Below are positions 7,229 through 43,495 of a stretch of DNA of 64,000 nt, one piece after another. Origin of the DNA: Escherichia coli (GTDB lineage: Bacteria; Pseudomonadota; Gammaproteobacteria; Enterobacterales; Enterobacteriaceae); NCBI RefSeq assembly GCF_003018115.1, contig NZ_CP027457.1; one strand, written 5' to 3'. The notes beneath the pieces were generated by a model, which was not told the origin of the DNA, ran no database searches, and saw only the letters and a program-made list of their open reading frames with translations. The translations under genes and the position numbers were made by a program. The first letter of the stretch is position 1. Each line of letters opens with the position of its first letter.

Positions 7229-7308
7229 GCCTGATGCGCTACGCTTATCATGCCTACAAAGATGCACGATCGAGTAGGCGGGATAAGGCGTTTACGCCGC
7301 ATCCGGCA
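7229..7308. repeat. REP/BIME pair (two inverted REP units)
   Basis: gcctgatgcgctacgcttatcatgcctac ... gtaggcgggataaggcgtttacgccgcatccggc; canonical REP consensus. Confidence 0.8.
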
Positions 7309-7379
7309 TGGAAAACGCGTACTTTGTTATCAATCTGGGGCCAGCAAATGCTGGCCTGATTTGTTCTTGAGGGAAGACT

Positions 7380-8099
7380 ATGATGCGCAAAATGCTGCTG
7401 GCGGCAGCACTTTCAGTGACGGCAATTACCGCTCACGCCGACTACCAGTGCAGCGTCACGCCGCGTGACGATGTGATTGTCAGCCCGCAAACCGTGCAGG
7501 TGAAGGGCGAAAACGGCAATCTGGTGATCACGCCAGACGGCAACGTGATGTATAACGGTAAGCAATATTCTCTGAATGCCGCCCAGCGCGAGCAGGCGAA
7601 GGATTATCAGGCTGAACTACGCAGCACACTGCCGTGGATTGATGAAGGCGCGAAAAGCCGCGTCGAAAAAGCCCGTATTGCTCTGGATAAAATTATCGTT
7701 CAGGAGATGGGCGAAAGCAGCAAAATGCGCAGCCGTCTGACCAAACTTGATGCGCAGCTGAAAGAGCAGATGAACCGCATTATCGAAACGCGCAGCGATG
7801 GCCTGACGTTTCACTATAAAGCCATTGATCAGGTTCGCGCCGAAGGCCAGCAATTAGTGAATCAGGCAATGGGTGGAATTTTACAGGACAGCATTAATGA
7901 AATGGGCGCGAAAGCGGTGCTGAAAAGCGGCGGCAACCCATTACAGAATGTGCTGGGAAGTCTGGGCGGTCTGCAATCCTCAATCCAAACCGAGTGGAAA
8001 AAGCAGGAAAAAGATTTCCAGCAGTTTGGCAAAGATGTTTGTAGCCGCGTTGTGACTCTGGAAGATAGCCGCAAAGCCCTGGTCGGGAATTTAAAATAA
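7380..8099 (+). CDS. yggN: Periplasmic DUF2884 protein YggN
   Basis: 239 aa with N-terminal signal peptide (MMRKMLLAAALSVTAITAHA). Confidence 0.88.
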   Translation: MMRKMLLAAALSVTAITAHADYQCSVTPRDDVIVSPQTVQVKGENGNLVITPDGNVMYNGKQYSLNAAQREQAKDYQAELRSTLPWIDEGAKSRVEKARIALDKIIVQEMGESSKMRSRLTKLDAQLKEQMNRIIETRSDGLTFHYKAIDQVRAEGQQLVNQAMGGILQDSINEMGAKAVLKSGGNPLQNVLGSLGGLQSSIQTEWKKQEKDFQQFGKDVCSRVVTLEDSRKALVGNLK

Positions 8100-8204
8100 T
8101 CCTCTATTTTAAGACGGCATAATACTTTTTTATGCCGTTTAATTCTTCGTTTTGTTACCTGCCTCTAACTTTGTAGATCTCCAAAATATATTCACGTTGT
8201 AAAT

Positions 8205-8218
8205 TGTTTAACGTCAAA
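8205..8218. promoter_or_regulatory. Candidate FNR-type site (TTGTT-N4-GTCAA) upstream of ansB
   Basis: Near-palindromic match to TTGAT-N4-ATCAA about 60 bp upstream of the ansB ATG; ansB is known to be FNR/CRP-activated. Confidence 0.35.
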
Positions 8219-8274
8219 TTTCCCATACAAAGCTAAGGGATAATGCGTAGCGTTCACGTAACTGGAGGAATGAA

Positions 8275-9321
8275 ATGGAGTTTTTCAAAAAGACGGCACT
8301 TGCCGCACTGGTTATGGGTTTTAGTGGTGCAGCATTGGCATTACCCAATATCACCATTTTAGCAACCGGCGGGACCATTGCCGGTGGTGGTGACTCCGCA
8401 ACCAAATCTAACTACACAGCGGGTAAAGTTGGCGTAGAAAATCTGGTTAATGCGGTGCCGCAACTGAAGGACATTGCGAACGTTAAAGGCGAGCAGGTAG
8501 TGAATATCGGCTCCCAGGACATGAACGATAATGTCTGGCTGACACTGGCGAAAAAAATTAACACCGACTGCGATAAGACCGACGGCTTCGTCATTACCCA
8601 CGGTACCGACACGATGGAAGAAACTGCTTACTTCCTCGACCTGACGGTGAAATGCGATAAGCCGGTGGTGATGGTCGGCGCAATGCGTCCGTCCACGTCT
8701 ATGAGCGCAGACGGTCCATTCAACCTGTATAACGCGGTAGTGACCGCAGCTGATAAAGCCTCCGCCAACCGTGGCGTGTTGGTAGTGATGAACGACACCG
8801 TGCTTGATGGCCGTGACGTCACCAAAACCAACACCACCGACGTAGCGACCTTCAAGTCTGTTAACTACGGTCCTCTGGGTTACATTCACAACGGTAAGAT
8901 TGATTACCAGCGTACCCCGGCACGTAAGCACACCAGCGACACGCCATTCGATGTCTCTAAGCTGAATGAACTGCCGAAAGTCGGCATTGTTTATAACTAC
9001 GCTAACGCATCCGATCTTCCGGCTAAAGCACTGGTAGATGCGGGCTATGATGGCATCGTGAGCGCTGGTGTGGGTAACGGCAACCTGTATAAAACCGTAT
9101 TTGACACCCTTGCGACCGCCGCGAAAAACGGCACTGCGGTCGTGCGTTCTTCCCGCGTACCGACGGGCGCTACCACTCAGGATGCCGAAGTGGATGATGC
9201 GAAATACGGCTTCGTCGCCTCTGGCACGTTGAACCCGCAAAAAGCGCGCGTTCTGCTGCAACTGGCTCTGACGCAAACCAAAGATCCGCAGCAGATCCAG
9301 CAGATCTTCAATCAGTACTAA
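8275..9321 (+). CDS. ansB: Periplasmic L-asparaginase II
   Basis: 348 aa, signal peptide, asparaginase active-site motif ILATGGTIAG and full-length identity to AnsB. Confidence 0.96.
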   Translation: MEFFKKTALAALVMGFSGAALALPNITILATGGTIAGGGDSATKSNYTAGKVGVENLVNAVPQLKDIANVKGEQVVNIGSQDMNDNVWLTLAKKINTDCDKTDGFVITHGTDTMEETAYFLDLTVKCDKPVVMVGAMRPSTSMSADGPFNLYNAVVTAADKASANRGVLVVMNDTVLDGRDVTKTNTTDVATFKSVNYGPLGYIHNGKIDYQRTPARKHTSDTPFDVSKLNELPKVGIVYNYANASDLPAKALVDAGYDGIVSAGVGNGNLYKTVFDTLATAAKNGTAVVRSSRVPTGATTQDAEVDDAKYGFVASGTLNPQKARVLLQLALTQTKDPQQIQQIFNQY

Positions 9322-34172: not shown

Positions 34173-35561
34173 ATGGAAAACAAGTCTGCTCGTGCAAAGG
34201 TCCAGGCTTTTGGGGGCTTTTTGACTGCAATGGTCATCCCCAATATTGGTGCTTTTATTGCCTGGGGTTTTATTACTGCGTTATTTATTCCCACCGGTTG
34301 GCTGCCTAACGAACATTTCGCCAAAATTGTCGGCCCGATGATTACCTATTTATTGCCCGTGATGATTGGTTCTACCGGTGGTCATCTGGTCGGCGGTAAA
34401 CGCGGCACGGTCATGGGCGGAATAGGTACTATTGGTGTGATCGTCGGCGCAGAGATCCCGATGTTCCTTGGCTCAATGATTATGGGGCCGCTCGGTGGGC
34501 TGGTCATAAAATATGTCGATAAGGCACTGGAAAAACGCATACCTGCTGGTTTTGAGATGGTTATCAATAACTTCTCATTAGGTATCGCGGGGATGCTCCT
34601 TTGCCTGCTGGGTTTTGAAGTGATCGGCCCGGCGGTGTTAATTGCCAATACTTTCGTCAAAGAGTGTATTGAGGCGCTGGTACATGCGGGTTATCTGCCT
34701 CTGCTGTCAGTCATCAATGAACCGGCGAAAGTGCTTTTCCTTAATAATGCGATCGATCAGGGCGTCTATTATCCGCTGGGAATGCAACAGGCTTCGGTTA
34801 ACGGTAAATCCATCTTCTTTATGGTGGCCTCTAACCCAGGTCCGGGCCTGGGGCTGCTGCTGGCGTTTACCTTGTTTGGTAAAGGGATGAGTAAACGTTC
34901 TGCGCCCGGGGCGATGATTATTCACTTCCTCGGTGGGATCCACGAACTGTATTTCCCATATGTGCTGATGAAGCCGCTGACTATTATTGCCATGATTGTG
35001 GGCGGTATGTCTGGCACCTGGATGTTTAACTTACTGGACGGTGGTCTGGTGGCTGGCCCAAGTCCGGGGTCTATCTTTGCTTACCTGGCGCTGACGCCGA
35101 AAGGTTCGTTCCTGGCGACAATTGCCGGTGTTACGGTAGGTACCCTGGTGTCCTTTGCTATCACTTCGCTGATACTGAAGATGGAAAAAACGGTGGAAAC
35201 GGAGAGCGAAGATGAGTTTGCTCAGTCAGCCAATGTGGTTAAGGCGATGAAACAAGAGGGTGCATTCTCGTTAAGCAGGGTTAAGCGTATCGCCTTTGTT
35301 TGCGATGCGGGGATGGGCTCCAGTGCGATGGGCGCGACCACCTTCCGTAAACGCCTGGAAAAAGCGGGGCTGGCAATTGAAGTAAAACATTACGCCATAG
35401 AAAACGTGCCTGCGGATGCGGATATCGTCGTTACTCATGCCAGTCTGGAAGGGCGCGTGAAACGTGTGACGGATAAACCACTGATATTGATTAATAACTA
35501 TATTGGCGATCCAAAACTCGACACTTTATTTAATCAATTAACCGCCGAACATAAACACTGA
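34173..35561 (+). CDS. cmtA: Mannitol-family PTS EIICB (cryptic)
   Basis: 462 aa, polytopic EIIC followed by EIIB (CDAGMGSS). Confidence 0.92.
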   Translation: MENKSARAKVQAFGGFLTAMVIPNIGAFIAWGFITALFIPTGWLPNEHFAKIVGPMITYLLPVMIGSTGGHLVGGKRGTVMGGIGTIGVIVGAEIPMFLGSMIMGPLGGLVIKYVDKALEKRIPAGFEMVINNFSLGIAGMLLCLLGFEVIGPAVLIANTFVKECIEALVHAGYLPLLSVINEPAKVLFLNNAIDQGVYYPLGMQQASVNGKSIFFMVASNPGPGLGLLLAFTLFGKGMSKRSAPGAMIIHFLGGIHELYFPYVLMKPLTIIAMIVGGMSGTWMFNLLDGGLVAGPSPGSIFAYLALTPKGSFLATIAGVTVGTLVSFAITSLILKMEKTVETESEDEFAQSANVVKAMKQEGAFSLSRVKRIAFVCDAGMGSSAMGATTFRKRLEKAGLAIEVKHYAIENVPADADIVVTHASLEGRVKRVTDKPLILINNYIGDPKLDTLFNQLTAEHKH

Positions 35562-35575
35562 TTACAGAGGTAAAA

Positions 35576-36853
35576 ATGAAAACCAAAGTTGCTGCTATTT
35601 ATGGCAAGCGGGATGTCCGTCTGCGCGAATTTGAACTACCAGAAATTACCGATAATGAATTACTGGTGAGTGTGATTTCTGACAGCGTCTGTTTATCCAC
35701 CTGGAAAGCGGCGTTACTCGGTAGTGAACATAAACGCGTACCCGACGATTTAGAAAATCATCCGGTCATTACCGGGCATGAATGTGCCGGGGTTATTGTC
35801 GAAGTGGGTAAAAATCTCACTGGCAAATATAAAAAAGGCCAGCGTTTTGTATTGCAACCGGCGATGGGATTACCAAGCGGATATTCAGCGGGCTACAGCT
35901 ACGAATATTTTGGCGGCAATGCCACTTATATGATTATTCCCGAAATCGCCATTAATTTGGGCTGCGTATTACCGTATCACGGCTCTTATTTTGCTGCGGC
36001 GTCGCTGGCAGAGCCTATGTGCTGCATTATTGGTGCTTATCATGCCAATTATCACACCACGCAATATGTTTATGAGCATCGCATGGGCGTCAAACCTGGC
36101 GGCAATATTGCGCTACTGGCGTGTGCAGGTCCGATGGGCATTGGCGCTATAGATTACGCCATTAACGGCGGCATACAACCGTCGCGGGTGGTGGTGGTCG
36201 ATATCGACGACACACGTCTGGCGCAGGTACAGAAGCTGCTGCCGGTGGAACTGGCGGCCAGTAAAGGCATTGAGCTGGTGTATGTGAATACCAAAGGGAT
36301 GAGCGATCCTGTCCAGATGCTGCGGGCGCTGACAGGAGATGCCGGGTTCGATGACATTTTTGTTTATGCGGCGGTGCCTGCTGTCGTTGAGATGGCTGAT
36401 GAATTACTGGCGGAAGATGGCTGTCTGAACTTCTTTGCCGGGCCGACGGATAAAAACTTCAAAGTGCCGTTTAATTTCTACAACGTTCATTACAACAGCA
36501 CGCACGTCGTCGGTACATCCGGCGGTTCAACGGACGACATGAAAGAGGCGATTGCCCTTAGCGCCACTGGGCAGTTACAGCCGTCGTTTATGGTGACCCA
36601 TATCGGTGGCCTGGATGCGGTGCCAGAAACCGTGCTCAATCTGCCGGATATCCCTGGCGGTAAAAAACTCATTTATAACGGCGTGACCATGCCGCTCACT
36701 GCCATTGCCGATTTTGCCGAAAAAGGCAAAACCGATCCGCTGTTTAAAGAGTTGGCGCGGCTGGTTGAGAAAACGCACGGCATCTGGAATGAACAGGCCG
36801 AGAAATATCTGCTGGCACAATTTGGCGTTGATATCGGGGAGGCCGCGCAATGA
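35576..36853 (+). CDS. yggP: Zinc-type alcohol dehydrogenase-like (MDR) protein YggP
   Basis: 425 aa, MDR family (GHECAG zinc-ligand region, Rossmann fold). Confidence 0.9.
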   Translation: MKTKVAAIYGKRDVRLREFELPEITDNELLVSVISDSVCLSTWKAALLGSEHKRVPDDLENHPVITGHECAGVIVEVGKNLTGKYKKGQRFVLQPAMGLPSGYSAGYSYEYFGGNATYMIIPEIAINLGCVLPYHGSYFAAASLAEPMCCIIGAYHANYHTTQYVYEHRMGVKPGGNIALLACAGPMGIGAIDYAINGGIQPSRVVVVDIDDTRLAQVQKLLPVELAASKGIELVYVNTKGMSDPVQMLRALTGDAGFDDIFVYAAVPAVVEMADELLAEDGCLNFFAGPTDKNFKVPFNFYNVHYNSTHVVGTSGGSTDDMKEAIALSATGQLQPSFMVTHIGGLDAVPETVLNLPDIPGGKKLIYNGVTMPLTAIADFAEKGKTDPLFKELARLVEKTHGIWNEQAEKYLLAQFGVDIGEAAQ

Positions 36854-37815
36854 TGTCCCTGGCGTGGCCATTATTTCGCGTTACGGAACAGGCAGCGTTG
36901 GCTGCCTGGCCGCAAACCGGATGTGGCGACAAAAATAAAATTGATGGCCTGGCGGTCACCGCGATGCGCCAGGCATTAAACGAAGTCGCTTTTCGTGGAC
37001 GAGTGGTTATCGGCGAAGGAGAAATTGACCATGCGCCGATGCTGTGGATTGGAGAAGAGGTGGGCAAAGGCGATGGGCCAGAAGTCGATATCGCGGTTGA
37101 TCCCATTGAAGGCACGCGGATGGTGGCGATGGGGCAGAGCAATGCGCTGGCGGTCATGGCTTTCGCCCCTCGAGATAGCCTGTTACATGCGCCCGATATG
37201 TATATGAAAAAGCTGGTTGTTAATCGACTGGCTGCCGGGGCGATTGATCTGTCTTTGCCTCTGGCGGACAACTTGCGTAACGTGGCGCGGGCGTTAGGTA
37301 AACCGCTGGACAAGCTGCGCATGGTTACGCTGGATAAACCGCGTCTGAGTGCCGCGATTGAAGAAGCAACACAGCTGGGCGTGAAGGTTTTTGCCCTGCC
37401 GGATGGCGATGTCGCCGCCAGCGTGCTGACCTGCTGGCAGGATAATCCTTACGATGTGATGTACACCATCGGCGGTGCGCCGGAAGGCGTGATTTCTGCC
37501 TGTGCCGTTAAAGCATTAGGCGGGGATATGCAGGCCGAGCTGATTGACTTTTGTCAGGCTAAAGGGGATTACACGGAAAATCGGCAGATTGCAGAGCAGG
37601 AGCGCAAGCGTTGCAAGGCAATGGGCGTTGACGTTAACCGTGTGTACTCGCTCGATGAACTGGTGAGGGGGAACGATATCCTCTTTAGCGCTACGGGCGT
37701 GACGGGCGGTGAGCTGGTGAACGGTATCCAACAGACGGCGAATGGGGTGCGGACGCAGACATTACTGATCGGCGGCGCGGACCAAACGTGTAATATAATA
37801 GACTCCCTGCATTGA
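36850..37815 (+). CDS. yggF: Class II fructose-1,6-bisphosphatase (GlpX paralogue) YggF
   Basis: 321 aa GlpX-family; start overlaps yggP stop. Confidence 0.92.
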   Translation: MMSLAWPLFRVTEQAALAAWPQTGCGDKNKIDGLAVTAMRQALNEVAFRGRVVIGEGEIDHAPMLWIGEEVGKGDGPEVDIAVDPIEGTRMVAMGQSNALAVMAFAPRDSLLHAPDMYMKKLVVNRLAAGAIDLSLPLADNLRNVARALGKPLDKLRMVTLDKPRLSAAIEEATQLGVKVFALPDGDVAASVLTCWQDNPYDVMYTIGGAPEGVISACAVKALGGDMQAELIDFCQAKGDYTENRQIAEQERKRCKAMGVDVNRVYSLDELVRGNDILFSATGVTGGELVNGIQQTANGVRTQTLLIGGADQTCNIIDSLH

Positions 37816-37836
37816 TGGTGATCTATCGGAAGACCA

Positions 37837-38346
37837 ATGGCGACGCTGACAGAAGATGATGTGCTTGAGCAACTGGATGCACAGGACAATTTATTTTCAT
37901 TTATGAAAACGGCGCATTCTATTTTGCTCCAGGGGATACGCCAGTTTCTACCGTCGCTGTTTGTCGATAACGATGAAGAGATCGTCGAATATGCAGTGAA
38001 GCCGTTACTCGCCCAAAGCGGCCCGCTTGACGATATTGATGTTGCGCTGCGTTTGATTTATGCGCTGGGGAAAATGGATAAATGGCTGTACGCCGATATC
38101 ACGCACTTTTCCCAGTTCTGGCATTACCTGAACGAACAGGATGAAATGCCCGGATTTGCCGATGACATGACCTGGGATTTTATCAGCAACGTCAATAGCA
38201 TAACCCGCAATGCGACGCTCTATGACGCGTTGAAAGCGATGAAGTTCGCCGATTTCGCCGTCTGGTCAGAGGCGCGTTTTAGCGGGATGGTCAAAACGGC
38301 GCTGACGCTGGCAGTAACGACAACCTTAAAGGAATTAACGCCGTGA
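37837..38346 (+). CDS. yggD: MtlR-like regulatory protein YggD
   Basis: 169 aa, MtlR-family. Confidence 0.88.
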   Translation: MATLTEDDVLEQLDAQDNLFSFMKTAHSILLQGIRQFLPSLFVDNDEEIVEYAVKPLLAQSGPLDDIDVALRLIYALGKMDKWLYADITHFSQFWHYLNEQDEMPGFADDMTWDFISNVNSITRNATLYDALKAMKFADFAVWSEARFSGMVKTALTLAVTTTLKELTP

Positions 38347-39056
38347 AAATTGAATTAACGGTGAATGGTCTGAAGGTACAGGCACAGTACCATGATGATG
38401 AGATAGAAAATGTACATAAACCGTTGCTGCGCATGTTGGCGGCCTTACAGACGGTAAATCCGCAGCGGCGTACGGTAGTTTTTCTTTGCGCTCCGCCGGG
38501 GACGGGGAAATCTACCCTAACCACCTTCTGGGAATATCTCGCACAACAAGACCCGGAACTACCCGCTATTCAGACGCTCCCGATGGATGGTTTTCACCAT
38601 TACAATAGCTGGCTGGATGCGCATCAATTGCGCCCCTTCAAAGGCGCACCAGAGACATTTGACGTTGCGAAACTGGCGGAAAATCTGCGCCAGGTAATGG
38701 AAGGGGATTGTACGTGGCCACAGTACGATCGACAAAAGCATGATCCTGTTGAAGATGCGTTGCACGTTACCGCACCACTCGTCATCGTCGAAGGAAACTG
38801 GTTGTTGCTGGACGACGAGAAGTGGTGCCAGCTTGCGCAATTTTGTGATTTCTCGATCTTTATCAACGCGCCAGCTACTGCGTTGCGGGAACGACTGGTG
38901 GGGCGCAAGCTGGCGGGAGGGTTATCGCTGGCAGACGCAGAAGCCTTTTATGACCGTACCGATGGGCCGAATGTTCGCCGGGTGCTGGAAGAGAGTCTGC
39001 CTGCACATTTGACCTTAATAATGACCGCTACGGGTGAATATCGTCTGGTGGATTAA
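38343..39056 (+). CDS. yggC: P-loop NTPase/kinase-like protein YggC
   Basis: 237 aa, Walker A (APPGTGKST). Confidence 0.9.
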   Translation: MKIELTVNGLKVQAQYHDDEIENVHKPLLRMLAALQTVNPQRRTVVFLCAPPGTGKSTLTTFWEYLAQQDPELPAIQTLPMDGFHHYNSWLDAHQLRPFKGAPETFDVAKLAENLRQVMEGDCTWPQYDRQKHDPVEDALHVTAPLVIVEGNWLLLDDEKWCQLAQFCDFSIFINAPATALRERLVGRKLAGGLSLADAEAFYDRTDGPNVRRVLEESLPAHLTLIMTATGEYRLVD

Positions 39057-39705
39057 CGTTCCTGATTACACCATCTTCCAGTCGCACCACCCGAGAGAAA
39101 TGACGCCGGGTAAATGCGGCGTCATGACTGATTGCTACGACGCTCGTGCCTCGCTGGCGGCACTTTTCCAGCCAGCTTTCAAACACGCTCATCCAATTTT
39201 CGTCAAAATCCCGACTCGGCTCGTCCAGCAGCAATAGCGGCGGAGAGAGTGCTTCCAGGCAGGCGACGGCGACCATCCGTCGCTGCGCACTATGCAGATC
39301 TAACGGATGCGCGCTGGCAGTGTCTGCTAACTGACAGCATTGCAGGGCAGCATGGGTACGTTGAGTGATTTCATCCGCCGGGCATTTTTGCAGTTTCAAA
39401 CCAAATGCGATCTCGTCGGCGACGGTGCTGTGAAAAAGCTGGTTTTCCGCTTCCTGAAACAGTACGCCAATCTTTGCTGCACGTTGGCGGTTTTTCAGGT
39501 TTTTCATCGCCTGTTGTTGCAATATAACCGTACCGGTTGTGGGCGTAAGAAGACCTGCCATTACTCGTAACAGCGTCGATTTTCCCGCGCCATTGTCGCC
39601 GGTCAGCGCCAACCATTCACCTTGTTTGAGTTGCAGAGAAATGTCGCAAAGACAATCCGTTGCCGCGCCAGGCCAGCGATAAGTTATCTGATTTAACGTT
39701 AGCAT
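39028..39705 (-). CDS. ECF/ABC transporter ATPase subunit 2 (EcfA'-like) with degenerate signature motif
   Basis: 225 aa; Walker A GDNGAGKST, Walker B LLLLDEPS, LSGGQ replaced by LHSAQRR; 3' end overlaps yggC 3' end by 29 bp (convergent). Confidence 0.85.
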   Translation of the reverse strand: MLTLNQITYRWPGAATDCLCDISLQLKQGEWLALTGDNGAGKSTLLRVMAGLLTPTTGTVILQQQAMKNLKNRQRAAKIGVLFQEAENQLFHSTVADEIAFGLKLQKCPADEITQRTHAALQCCQLADTASAHPLDLHSAQRRMVAVACLEALSPPLLLLDEPSRDFDENWMSVFESWLEKCRQRGTSVVAISHDAAFTRRHFSRVVRLEDGVIRNVNPPDDIHP

Positions 39706-40376
39706 AGTGGCTGGAGCGCTCCGTTTTGCAATTGCCAGGCTTGCTGGCAGTAGTTCAGGAAAGGTGTGCGATGACGTTCAAAAAGAATAATCAGCGAACC
39801 ACGTTCAAGCGCCCAGTGTTGTAAGCGCTGCAACAGCATTTCGCTGGCCTGCGGCGTCAGGCGACTAAAGGCTTCATCAAGTATTAAGAGCTTTGGCTGC
39901 ATCGCGATGGCGCAGGCGATGACCACGCGCTGTGTCTCTCCACCGGAGAGTGTTGCCGGGTGACGATGGCGCAACGGCTGGCACTCGGTCAGAGTCAGGG
40001 CGGCATCAATCCGCGCCATAATCTCTTCTTCAGCAAGACACAGATTTTCTGGCCCAAAGGCAACTTCTTCTTCCACGCTAAAGGTACAGCCGGAGAGCTG
40101 CAAATAGGGCGATTGCTGAACGAGCTGGATGGTGGCGGATTGTTCATTAAGCGGGAGATGCCCAATGGGCGTACCGAGAAGCGTCCCCGTGCCGGTTATC
40201 TCTCCTGGCAGAAAGTCCGGATACCAGCCCGCCATCAGCTGTGCCAGCGTACTTTTGCCACTGCCGTTGTCACCAAAGATGGCGACCATCCCCGGTTTGA
40301 CATAGTGAAAGTCATAACAGAACGGAGGATGCGTTGAGTGTGTCGGGCAATAACGGAACTGTTCTAACGTAACCAT
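39699..40376 (-). CDS. ECF/ABC transporter ATPase subunit 1 (EcfA-like)
   Basis: Walker A GDNGSGKST, signature LSGGETQR, Walker B LLILDEA; first ATG at 40376 (GTG at 40382 also possible); overlaps flanking genes. Confidence 0.85.
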   Translation of the reverse strand: MVTLEQFRYCPTHSTHPPFCYDFHYVKPGMVAIFGDNGSGKSTLAQLMAGWYPDFLPGEITGTGTLLGTPIGHLPLNEQSATIQLVQQSPYLQLSGCTFSVEEEVAFGPENLCLAEEEIMARIDAALTLTECQPLRHRHPATLSGGETQRVVIACAIAMQPKLLILDEAFSRLTPQASEMLLQRLQHWALERGSLIILFERHRTPFLNYCQQAWQLQNGALQPLC

Positions 40377-41071
40377 ATCCACGCTCCGAATTCTGTCAGC
40401 ATCAGCAAGATCATGGTGTAACGCGCTACGCGTTGTAGGGTGCTATCGGCTGGTGCCCACAACGTTGTTCGTCGGTTGTGGATCCGAAATGCCCGCATAT
40501 CCAGCGCCGCACCACGGACAGCAAGATTGTTTAGCGCATTGTGTGTTAGCGGAATAATTAACGCGGGCATCGCACGTAAACGCTGATACCAGCCCTCATC
40601 CAGCGGCACGCCGCGGGCACGCTGCGCTTCATGAATAATCGCTAATTGCCGTTTTAACTGCTCAACGACCAATAACGGCCCGGCAAACAGATAAGCGACG
40701 CCTGGCGGCAGGCGAGAAGCAAACAGAGCGCGGATAAAACATTGCACGGGGACGTACTGCATCCACAACTGTGAGGTTGAAACAATCGCCAGAATCCGCA
40801 ACCAGAGCGTAATAGCATGCGTCCAACGCTCCGGCGAACGCGGCGTGCCGCTTAGCCATTCTGTTAGCCAGCCACCGTGTACCAGCCACAGCCCGGCTCC
40901 CAGCGAGAACATCAGCCAGACGACATATTTTGCCCGCCGCCGCGTGGCCTTTAGCGCAATAAGGCAGAAAAAGGTCGCCGCGCTATAGACTGGCAGTATT
41001 GTCTGTGTGGGCAGGATAAGCGTGGTGCAGGCCGCCAATGCCCATAGTGTTAATGAGGTAAATGGATGCAT
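40364..41071 (-). CDS. ECF transporter transmembrane T component (EcfT/CbiQ family)
   Basis: 235 aa polytopic; conserved Ala-Arg-Gly motifs (EAQRARGVP, LAVRGAAL); start codon directly abuts the S-component stop. Confidence 0.83.
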   Translation of the reverse strand: MHPFTSLTLWALAACTTLILPTQTILPVYSAATFFCLIALKATRRRAKYVVWLMFSLGAGLWLVHGGWLTEWLSGTPRSPERWTHAITLWLRILAIVSTSQLWMQYVPVQCFIRALFASRLPPGVAYLFAGPLLVVEQLKRQLAIIHEAQRARGVPLDEGWYQRLRAMPALIIPLTHNALNNLAVRGAALDMRAFRIHNRRTTLWAPADSTLQRVARYTMILLMLTEFGAWIWLR

Positions 41072-41650
41072 TTAGCGCACGGCAGCCATTGCCGGAAAAT
41101 GGCGCGTGGTGCGAATCGGCAGCTGGCGCAGTAAAAGCCAGACAATCACCGCTGTAAGAGTTTTATCGACCAGGTTCGCGCCTATCACCGTAATCGCCAC
41201 CGACTCCACCAGGTTTTGCCCCATCGAGTGCATCCAGGCAACGAACAAATCGGCTCCGCTACCGGTGACACCGCCGAACAGCGCAGTACGCAGCGGTACA
41301 GCGACGACCGTTACCGCAAGCGTAATAATCACGCCGCTGACAACGACTTTTGGCAGGGTGCGAAACCAACCCGCTCGCGCCAGCCAACCGGCGACCAGGC
41401 CGATGACCATCGCGACGGGTGCAAATGCGGCGGCGATCGGGTCGGTCAGCAATCCCCAGAGTAAATTGGTCAGTAAGCCGGTCAGCATTCCGATCACCGG
41501 ACCAAGCAGTACCGCGCTAATAAGTGTGCCGATGGAGTCGAGAAATATAGGTAATTTGACCATGCTGGCCAGTTGCCCGCCGATCATATTGATGGCGATA
41601 GATATAACGATCAACACCAGTGCCTGACTGGAAAAGTGGCTACGCGCCAT
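41072..41650 (-). CDS. ECF transporter substrate-specific S component (substrate unknown)
   Basis: 192 aa from MARSHFSS, ~6 TM segments, GAGAGG RBS 7 nt upstream; S-component-like small integral membrane protein. Confidence 0.75.
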   Translation of the reverse strand: MARSHFSSQALVLIVISIAINMIGGQLASMVKLPIFLDSIGTLISAVLLGPVIGMLTGLLTNLLWGLLTDPIAAAFAPVAMVIGLVAGWLARAGWFRTLPKVVVSGVIITLAVTVVAVPLRTALFGGVTGSGADLFVAWMHSMGQNLVESVAITVIGANLVDKTLTAVIVWLLLRQLPIRTTRHFPAMAAVR

Positions 41651-41672
41651 AAGAAAACCTCTCTGAAAGTAG

Positions 41673-42104
41673 TTATTTAACGGGGGAAATATGCAACTCG
41701 TCGTAACCAGAAAGCGCGCAAGGTTGGCGGCTAAACGCCAGTTCCTCAAGGCTACCGATCACCAGTTCAAGCGTGGTCCGCACGGTACAGCCGGGCATCA
41801 TATGACCGCCAAGCATCGTGCCGTGTGGATCGGAAACGCAGAGATGAAGATGCTCACCACTCTGTTCCAACGTGCCGTTTAGTGAGATCACTTCGAATGT
41901 ACCGTTCAGGAGCGTGGTGCCTTCTTGCCCGGCATAGCGCAAGGCGATGTCAGTCAGGCTACCGGTACAGCCTGCAATCCAGGCGGCATGAAGTTGCTGC
42001 TGCTGTGCAAAAGCGTGTAGCTGGGAAAAAACTTCCTGCCCGGGGAGGAGGCGCAGTGCGTAAAAGCGTGCGGAGGAAGAATATGGGTAGGGCAATGTCA
42101 TCAT
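41673..42104 (-). CDS. PPC/DUF296 domain protein, first gene of the ECF operon
   Basis: 143 aa; recognised as PPC (DUF296) from memory; GGAG RBS 7 nt upstream of MMTLPYPY. Confidence 0.7.
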   Translation of the reverse strand: MMTLPYPYSSSARFYALRLLPGQEVFSQLHAFAQQQQLHAAWIAGCTGSLTDIALRYAGQEGTTLLNGTFEVISLNGTLEQSGEHLHLCVSDPHGTMLGGHMMPGCTVRTTLELVIGSLEELAFSRQPCALSGYDELHISPVK

Positions 42105-42475
42105 TGGAGTACTCCGAAACTCGGACGTATTGCGGATAATATCGACGCTGCATCAGTCATATTCTGATATAAGTCAGGGTTTGTGACGGCACAACGAAAA
42201 GATTTTGCTACGCTTATTCGTGATTCTGCAAAGTGGAATAAATTCCACAGGGGCGGGGCTGAAAACGTGACGTAAGTCAGATATTTGTTTTCTTTGACTG
42301 GACAATCATTCCTTTTATTCCACGTTTCGCTTATCCTAGCTGAAGCGTTTCAGTCGATTAAATGTTCGACAATTAACCAATCAGTCGCAGTTTGCGACAG
42401 GTAAGGTTTCCCCGGACGATTTGCTGGATTACTCTGTCTGGCAAATTTGCTCAGGGAAAACCTTGCAGGAGATCT

Positions 42476-43495
42476 ATGACCGTACGCGTAGCGATAAATG
42501 GCTTCGGTCGCATCGGGCGTAATGTGGTTCGTGCTTTGTATGAATCCGGACGCCGGGCGGAAATTACCGTGGTGGCAATCAACGAACTGGCGGATGCTGC
42601 GGGCATGGCGCATTTGTTGAAATATGACACCAGCCATGGCCGTTTTGCATGGGAAGTACGACAGGAACGCGATCAACTTTTTGTTGGTGATGACGCCATC
42701 CGCGTATTGCATGAACGTTCACTGCAATCGCTCCCCTGGCGTGAACTTGGCGTTGATGTAGTCCTCGACTGCACCGGCGTATATGGCTCCCGCGAGCATG
42801 GCGAAGCGCATATTGCCGCCGGGGCCAAAAAAGTGCTCTTTTCACATCCTGGCAGTAACGATCTCGACGCGACCGTTGTTTACGGCGTCAATCAGGATCA
42901 ACTTCGTGCGGAACACCGCATCGTTTCTAACGCTTCCTGTACCACGAATTGCATAATTCCCGTCATCAAATTGTTAGATGATGCGTACGGTATTGAGTCC
43001 GGCACTGTGACCACAATTCACTCCGCCATGCACGATCAACAGGTTATTGATGCATACCATCCTGACCTGCGTCGCACCCGGGCAGCCAGCCAGTCGATCA
43101 TTCCGGTCGATACTAAACTGGCCGCCGGTATCACACGATTTTTTCCGCAATTTAACGATCGCTTTGAAGCGATTGCGGTACGTGTGCCAACCATAAATGT
43201 GACGGCAATCGATTTAAGCGTGACGGTGAAGAAACCTGTAAAAGCCAATGAAGTCAACCTGTTGCTGCAAAAAGCAGCACAAGGTGCATTTCATGGTATA
43301 GTTGACTATACGGAATTGCCGTTGGTCTCTGTAGATTTTAACCACGATCCGCACAGTGCCATTGTCGATGGCACCCAAACCCGGGTCAGTGGCGCACACC
43401 TGATCAAAACGTTGGTCTGGTGCGATAACGAATGGGGCTTTGCTAACCGAATGCTCGACACGACGTTAGCTATGGCTACTGTTGCTTTCAGGTAA
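42476..43495 (+). CDS. epd: D-erythrose-4-phosphate dehydrogenase
   Basis: ORF 42392..43495; start set at [15 protein letters not shown] (339 aa); GAPDH family. Confidence 0.96.

Follow-up and report, generated by a model that had tools for sequence, protein, structure and literature searches.

The window analysed here, a stretch of 64,000 nucleotides (nt) from Escherichia coli (contig NZ_CP027457.1), carries on its minus strand, at 39028–42104, a packed operon of five genes in the order PPC-S-T-A1-A2. From its gene content, this operon is predicted to encode a dedicated (group I) importer of the energy-coupling factor (ECF) type of ATP-binding cassette (ABC) transporter. The motifs of its two ATPases, A1 and A2, pointed to a conserved asymmetric A/A′ pair with one coherent degenerate ATP site and one fully consensus site. 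The two genes were matched by the Pfam model ABC_tran (PF00005; cut-off, 25 bits) as follows.

39028–39705, minus strand: A2, ECF-type ABC ATPase of 225 amino acids (ABC_tran, 96 bits; RefSeq WP_001613781.1, ABC transporter ATP-binding protein)
39699–40382, minus strand: A1, ECF-type ABC ATPase (ABC_tran, 77 bits; RefSeq WP_001613780.1)

The first-pass annotation of this DNA, made from the letters alone, had described the downstream ATPase as having intact Walker A and Walker B motifs and LHSAQRR in place of LSGGQ. The location of the motifs in A2 agreed with that description, and in HMMER alignments to solved nucleotide-binding domains (NBDs) LHSAQ lay directly opposite LSGGQ. With the residues that follow it, the signature reads LHSAQRR (residues 137–143). 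The motifs of A2 are listed below.

39574–39600, minus strand: Walker A, GDNGAGKST (Lys42)
39433–39462, minus strand: Q-loop and Q-helix, LFQEAENQLF
39283–39297, minus strand: degenerate signature LHSAQ (residues 137–141) in place of LSGGQ
39220–39237, minus strand: Walker B, LLLLDE (Asp161 and the catalytic Glu162)
39202–39216, minus strand: D-loop, SRDFD, directly after Walker B
39121–39132, minus strand: canonical H-loop, ISHD (switch His194)

Conservation of these motifs was examined in two samples. The first consisted of the 120 best A2 protein clusters, which were 70–97% identical, came from Escherichia, Salmonella, Citrobacter, Klebsiella, Atlantibacter, and Leclercia, and in some cases represented hundreds to thousands of sequences. 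The second came from a locus scan of one genome per species with the S component as the query, which yielded 55 loci in Enterobacteriaceae, Morganellaceae (Proteus, Morganella, and Providencia), Budviciaceae (Budvicia and Limnobaculum), and Aeromonas. The signature was LH[T/S/A]AQRR in all 117 cluster sequences that covered the motif. L-[H/N/Y]-x-[A/G]-Q was read in 51 of the 52 A2 orthologues from the loci; in L012, the only other one, the motif falls within an unsequenced gap. By group, the form was LH-x-AQ in Enterobacteriaceae, LH-x-GQ in Morganellaceae and Budviciaceae, LNAGQ in Aeromonas, and LYIAQ in one Superficieibacter. The observation that the first-pass annotation had named as contradicting its reading, a canonical LSGGQ in orthologues, was looked for in these alignments; it occurred in none of the 117 motif-covering clusters (of 120) and in none of the 51 motif-covering orthologues (of 52), and the degenerate motif was conserved throughout. 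The remaining motifs of A2 were also stable: Walker A was GDNGAGKST in 50 of the 52 orthologues and GNNGAGKST in two, with an invariant lysine, LDEP and RDFD were invariant across loci, and ISHD was invariant in 52 loci. In comparisons with seven other taxa, the ratio of nonsynonymous to synonymous substitution rates (Ka/Ks) of A1, A2, and T was 0.05–0.21, and all three genes are, on this evidence, under purifying selection.

The upstream ATPase, A1, is 227 amino acids long from its GTG start and 225 from the RefSeq ATG at 40376. Walker A, Q-loop, Walker B, and D-loop followed one another in order, as in A2, and the canonical LSGGETQR that the first-pass annotation had assigned to the upstream ATPase was read in this protein. 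The features of A1 were as follows.

40248–40274, minus strand: Walker A, GDNGSGKST (Lys43), intact; GxNGSGKS conserved in orthologues
39936–39950, minus strand: canonical signature LSGGE (residues 145–149), invariant in 54 loci
39873–39890, minus strand: Walker B, LLILDE, intact; catalytic Glu kept in all loci
39855–39869, minus strand: D-loop, FSRLT, with Thr176 at the usual D-loop Asp position; SRLT near-invariant
39771–39782, minus strand: degenerate H-loop, F-E-R-H (residues 201–204), with Arg203 at the switch-His position

Nucleotide binding by A1 is to be expected, because Walker A is intact. In its H-loop, E-R was nearly invariant across the loci, and the next residue varied (N, H, T, K, R, D, Q, or P), so that His204 of the E. 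coli protein is not a conserved residue. Profile-profile alignment with hhalign, in which the A1 family was compared with the A2 family and with the NBD1 and NBD2 profiles of relatives having both NBDs fused in one chain, gave three concordant results, with Arg203 opposite the H-loop histidine and Glu202 at the preceding S/T position. Since the NBD1 H-loop consensus of the fused relatives was v-E-H, the histidine has been exchanged for arginine in A1. When A1 was aligned pairwise with the NBDs of P-glycoprotein by HMMER, the placements of the H-loop conflicted (E202 or H204 at the histidine position), and these alignments were dropped in favour of the concordant profile-profile alignments; whichever placement was taken, there was no conserved histidine in the A1 H-loop. 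The strand register of an AlphaFold2 model of A1-(GGGGS)6-A2 (strand 197–202 in A1 against 445–449 in A2) was also consistent with the placement of Arg203. This model was built from a paired alignment of 22 sequences and had a predicted local distance difference test (pLDDT) value of 87 and a predicted template modelling (pTM) score of 0.59, and only its secondary-structure register was used. The apparent loss of the H-loop histidine and of the D-loop aspartate in A1 goes beyond what the first-pass annotation had observed.

Each ATP site of an ABC transporter is composed of Walker A and B and the A-, Q-, and H-loops from one NBD together with the other NBD's signature (PMC7756269). By this architecture, the H-loop defect of A1 and the signature defect of A2 would belong to one and the same site. 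This site, site 1, would consist of Walker A and B of A1 and the signature of A2, and would carry two conserved defects, L-H-x-A/G-Q and Arg203 in place of the switch histidine. The other site, site 2, was consensus in every motif and in every orthologue, with Walker A, Walker B, the Q-loop, and the H-loop of A2 and LSGGE of A1. The earlier proposal of one competent and one degenerate site was thus strengthened by the conserved A2 signature together with the H-loop and D-loop losses of A1, which are predicted to lie in the same site.

We suggest the following mechanism. A1 and A2 would pair head to tail, giving a heterodimer whose two ATP sites are both composite, an arrangement to which the natural fusions described below point. 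Site 2, with Walker A, Glu162 of Walker B, the Q-loop, and His194 of A2 and LSGGE of A1, would be the motor at which ATP is hydrolysed. ATP binding most likely persists at site 1, since A1 keeps Lys43 of Walker A, an aromatic residue in the A-loop, and Asp169 and Glu170, and hydrolysis there is probably slow or null. ATP at site 1 would then serve as a structural or allosteric glue that aids closure of the dimer, and one ATP would be hydrolysed per cycle, at site 2. By closing, the A1/A2 dimer would drive the coupling helices of T, which release or reset the S component; this coupling is proposed on the analogy of ECF transporters of solved structure and of ABC exporters with a degenerate site. 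On the motif evidence, we consider it probable that hydrolysis at site 1 has been lost in a dedicated ECF A1/A2 heterodimer in which site 2 acts as the motor.

The fused relatives were obtained from an exhaustive search of 1.8 billion representatives, in which 141 two-NBD ECF-type ATPases were found among the best 150 representatives matching A2. Their best NCBIfam models were ECF_ATPase_1/2, and those named by JGI bear only generic names (energy-coupling factor transport system ATP-binding protein, or EcfA2). The signature of NBD1 was canonical in 129 of the 141 and that of NBD2 was other than LSGG[Q/E] in 105 (approximately 74%); the H-loop histidine was missing from NBD1 in 36/141 and from NBD2 in 1/141, and 34 of the 36 proteins without the NBD1 histidine had a degenerate NBD2 signature. 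The polarity of the asymmetry in E. coli therefore appears to be common among fused group I ECF ATPases. It is conceivable, although we advance it only tentatively, that a large clade of ECF importers, comprising the split PPC-linked family and many fused two-NBD group I systems, runs on a single hydrolytic site. The second site of such a clade may be a conserved non-catalytic ATP-binding site, in contrast to the group II systems.

Against the loss of hydrolysis at site 1 stands the alternative that ATP is hydrolysed at both sites. In such a functionally symmetric pair, LH-x-A/G-Q and the E-R H-loop would be tolerated lineage-specific variants, His138 taking over from the signature serine and Arg203 from the switch histidine. 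Walker A lysine, Asp-Glu of Walker B, and the Q-loop are all retained in A1, both replacement residues are strictly conserved and polar or charged, so that they could contact phosphate, and both sites are needed in group II ECF modules (PMC10368641). Nevertheless, we regard this alternative as unlikely. Both deviations fall in one composite site while the other is invariant consensus, and the same polarity recurs in the fused relatives, whose NBD2 signatures diverge so widely (LSRGQ, LRWAQ, LNLTE, LPKGD, and others) that the canonical contacts cannot all be kept. Moreover, replacement of the switch histidine, or of the signature glycine or serine, kills or severely lowers hydrolysis in model ABC ATPases (PMC7756269).

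A number of points nevertheless weigh against a site 1 without hydrolysis and a motor confined to site 2. The retention of the catalytic Glu170 and the Walker A lysine by A1 means that site 1 could retain some activity. The histidine or asparagine at the position of the signature serine and the arginine at the switch position could still contact the γ-phosphate. In many classical degenerate sites, the catalytic glutamate is lost. The pTM of the linked-dimer model was only 0.59, and the model informs the secondary-structure register, not the geometry of the sites. The percentages from the survey of fused ATPases may be biased, since the sample consisted of the best A2 matches, which are mutually related. 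Finally, a one-site ECF motor would be without experimental precedent, and in the group II ECF transporter of L. delbrueckii, in which both sites engage LSGGQ, disabling either site by a single E-to-Q exchange in the corresponding subunit abolished both ATPase activity and transport (PMC10368641).

Whether A1 and A2 are genuinely two genes was examined at their junction and in the fused relatives. They were separate open reading frames (ORFs) in 52 of the 52 loci in which both were readable. The overlap of the A1 stop and the A2 start, ATGCTAA, which contains A2's own ATG, was common to almost all Enterobacteriaceae, and GGAG lies 13 nt upstream of this ATG; the junctions elsewhere were overlaps of 14–17 nt in Morganellaceae and Budviciaceae and a short gap in Aeromonas. 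The conservation of overlapping start and stop codons argued that the split is real, and A1 and A2 are, on this evidence, a stable, translationally coupled two-gene pair with no recent frameshift lesion. Two apparent A2 ORFs of 437–451 amino acids (L026 and L031) were rejected as fusions because a stop codon lies within the tblastn match. True fusions were found among the metagenomic relatives. One protein of 503 amino acids (P0122) is an A1-A2 fusion in a PPC-S-T-(A1A2) context, and two of 650–680 amino acids (P0133 and P0155) have an N-terminal region of approximately 200–240 residues ahead of A1-A2. In the case of P0155 (652 amino acids), the context is PPC-S-(T-A1-A2) and a separate T gene is absent, so its N-terminal region is presumably T. 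Fusions of these types had F-E-R (or L-E-R) in the H-loop, where it was resolved, and LHAGQ or LNSAE as the signature. A dimer with one A1 and one A2 is supported by the natural fusions, both A1-A2 and T-A1-A2, and since they carry the same asymmetry, they show the asymmetry to be older than the difference between split and fused genes.

It is very improbable that A1 and A2 arose when a frameshift broke one fused ATPase gene in two in this lineage. Such an origin would fit the existence of close relatives fused as A1-A2 (503 amino acids) or as T-A1-A2 (approximately 650 amino acids) and the out-of-frame overlap of the two ORFs. The split, however, is found at every readable locus, with lineage-specific junctions and A2's own ATG, and both halves are under apparent purifying selection. 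The first-pass annotation had also favoured an asymmetric pair over a frameshifted fusion, and the pair itself stood up to these comparisons; its reasoning from the asymmetry did not, because the fusions show the same asymmetry, which on its own is no argument against a fused origin.

A similarly improbable alternative is that A1 and A2 are not partners, each forming a homodimer, or A2 serving another transporter. Homodimers do occur where a group I ECF system has only one ATPase gene (PMC6828968), and nothing else specific spoke for this arrangement. A homodimer of A2 would have two defective signatures and a homodimer of A1 two sites without the switch histidine, and the two genes are adjacent and translationally coupled in every locus and form one chain in the relatives. 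Least credible of all is a strain mutation, a sequencing error, or early decay of a dispensable operon: this is a polymorphic accessory operon of E. coli, with deletions across it in some strains and at least 80% of its length present in 3319 of 5426 complete genomes, but the degenerate signature is kept all the way from Escherichia to Proteus, Morganella, Budvicia, and Aeromonas, every readable locus has intact ORFs, and the Ka/Ks values given above are not near 1.

The closest single-NBD relatives of the two ATPases in the PDB were EcfA1 and EcfA2, with E values of about 1e-30 for A2 and 1e-25 for A1. On the NCBIfam models for the housekeeping EcfA1/EcfA2 equivalogs (TIGR04520/TIGR04521; cut-offs, 315/330), A2 scored 150.6/145.8 bits and A1 121.7/107.7 bits, so far under the cut-offs that neither is such an equivalog; the best NCBIfam models for both were ECF_ATPase_1/2 and cbiO, and the ECF_ATPase scores of A2 were also under their cut-offs. 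The label EcfA/EcfA′ in the first-pass annotation is therefore apt for ECF-type A components, as the best models indicated, but not in the sense of the housekeeping EcfA1/EcfA2 pair.

The group II EcfA-EcfA′-EcfT transporters (L. brevis 4HUQ and L. delbrueckii 5JSZ/8BMP; PMC10368641) share with the operon the architecture of A, A′, and T plus S, the (A/V)RG coupling motifs of T, and a Q-helix-like motif after the Q-loop (FQEAENQLF in A2 and VQQSPYLQL in A1). Whereas the group II modules serve many S components encoded elsewhere, the S gene here lies within the operon, and whereas canonical LSGGQ is engaged at both of their sites and both glutamates are required, one site here is predicted to be degenerate. 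A1 and A2 of Enterobacteriaceae also differ from the group II ATPases in being without the C-terminal extension of approximately 50 residues. Both ATPases are short in this family (approximately 225 amino acids; 39028–40382 in the window), whereas in Proteus, Morganella, Providencia, Budvicia, and Limnobaculum (L038–L056, about 7260–8920) A1 has approximately 279 and A2 252–273 amino acids. These longer orthologues carry a C-terminal extension of approximately 25–50 residues resembling that of typical EcfA proteins, and those of Aeromonas are intermediate (A1, 247 amino acids; A2, 231 amino acids). Where both extensions are lost, the A2 signature has also decayed further, with LH-x-AQ in place of LH-x-GQ.

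The degenerate-site heterodimers TAP1/TAP2, CFTR, MRP1, TM287/288, and Pdr5 (PMC7756269, PMC3971661) likewise have non-identical NBDs, and in them, as in A1 and A2, one NBD deviates in its signature and its partner in the H-loop, the deviations are conserved among orthologues, and the second site is fully consensus. LAAGQ of TAP2 and LNVEQ of Pdr5 resemble LHAGQ and LHSAQ. Those systems have type I/II exporter folds and work as exporters or channels, whereas the one in the window is an ECF-type (type III) importer known from its sequence. In addition, the degenerate site here still has its Walker B glutamate, A1 retaining LDE(A) in all loci, and the switch histidine is replaced by arginine, in contrast to glutamine, serine, or tyrosine in the degenerate-site exporters. 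With respect to the fused two-NBD group I ATPases, a class that includes YkoD of YkoEDC (PMC5037267), A1 resembles NBD1 (v-E-H and LSGGQ/E) and A2 resembles NBD2 ([ST]HD H-loop and a frequently non-canonical signature), a likeness taken from the surveyed representatives; the two NBDs here are encoded by separate, translationally coupled genes.

Reviews have placed degenerate sites in ABC exporters and channels (PMC3971661, PMC4338842, PMC7756269). Among importers, one degenerate site has been noted in the fused NBDs of RbsA and NupO, two type II importer ATPases of B. subtilis, in an analysis that did not extend to ECF systems (PMC11466899); these belong to a different transporter type and have lost the Walker A lysine, which is intact in A1 and A2. 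In the full texts searched, which do not include most subscription-journal papers, no ECF transporter was described as having a degenerate site. There was likewise no solved structure of the PPC-linked ECF ATPase family or of a fused ECF ATPase among those searched for, and nothing relevant in the literature searched on CD3073 or on DUF296 in connection with ECF transporters.

The motifs thus suggest that a design well known in ABC exporters occurs here in an ECF-type importer. Degenerate ATP sites are a central theme of the mechanism of ABC exporters. If the asymmetry has the proposed consequence, a naturally one-sided ECF motor would bear on the ATP cost of each transport cycle and on whether ATP binding at the second site suffices for dimer closure and expulsion of the S component. 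It would be informative because both sites are indispensable in the one ECF module tested, and the E. coli operon would offer a genetically tractable model for the number of ATP molecules used in the toppling cycle of the S component. The practical consequence is modest, since this is an accessory system in E. coli and the case is built on motifs.

Pfam, NCBIfam, and RefSeq annotation agreed on the five genes of the operon, of which the three upstream of the ATPase genes are as follows.

41673–42104, minus strand: PPC (DUF296) domain protein, the first gene of the operon (Pfam PCC, 98.7 bits)
41072–41650, minus strand: ECF S (substrate-capture) component of 192 amino acids (RefSeq start; RefSeq name, ECF transporter S component; longest ORF to 41749)
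40364–41071, minus strand: putative ECF T (transmembrane coupling) component of 235 amino acids (ORF; RefSeq name, energy-coupling factor transporter transmembrane component T)

The S component matched Pfam ECF_trnsprt (PF12822) at 32.5 bits (cut-off, 30.7) and NCBIfam NF045596, the CD3073-family S component, at 134.2 bits, under the cut-off of 180, as a related protein that is not a member. The T component matched Pfam CbiQ (PF02361) at 21.4 bits, under the 25-bit cut-off, and had no NCBIfam match, but it contains two (A/V)RG coupling-helix motifs, QRARG at 40610–40624 (residues 150–154) and LAVRG at 40511–40525 (residues 183–187). Identification as an ECF system is supported by the above-threshold Pfam match of S, the (A/V)RG motifs of T, and the ECF_ATPase models as the best ones for the ATPases, and the assignment to group I follows from the presence of the S, T, and A genes together in one operon.

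The gene order PPC-S-T-A1-A2 was retained in all 53 loci of sufficient length and in the metagenomic relatives. The PPC/DUF296 gene headed the operon upstream of S in 55 of the 55 loci, in some of which the contig ends within it, and it also preceded S in the metagenomic relatives with fused ATPases (L057, 919–1383; L058, 3732–4190). The PPC/DUF296 protein appears from this association to be an obligate partner in a PPC-linked family of ECF transporters. Within the operon, the stop codon of S immediately adjoins the start of T (41071–41072), T and A1 overlap by 19 nt (13 nt from the RefSeq ATG at 40376), and A1 and A2 overlap by 7 nt; this packing is suited to translational coupling. Many ECF operons are under riboswitch control. 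An Rfam scan of 41600–42600 (E values up to 1), which covers the PPC leader and the divergent intergenic region towards epd, detected no family and no riboswitch.

The region is E. coli chromosome, with 100% identity to strain F9792, and the operon is flanked by cmtBA-yggP-glpX(yggF)-fumE(yggD)-yggC on one side and epd-pgk-fbaA on the other. The nearest of these genes on the A2 side, yggC (38343–39056, plus strand; nucleoside/nucleotide-kinase family), converges on A2, with a 29-bp 3′ overlap at 39028–39056. It was considered as a functional clue and rejected: it adjoined the operon in only about one-third of the loci of Enterobacteriaceae and in none of those of Morganellaceae, Budviciaceae, and Aeromonas, and this patchy adjacency and absence from distant loci place it outside the conserved module. 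On the other side of the operon, epd was present in nearly all Enterobacteriaceae. In one strain (L061, NZ_CP180597.1), compared with 34173–42200 of the window, yggP, glpX, fumE, and yggC are missing together with the entire ECF operon, owing to a deletion with one end in the middle of cmtA and the other just upstream of the PPC gene.

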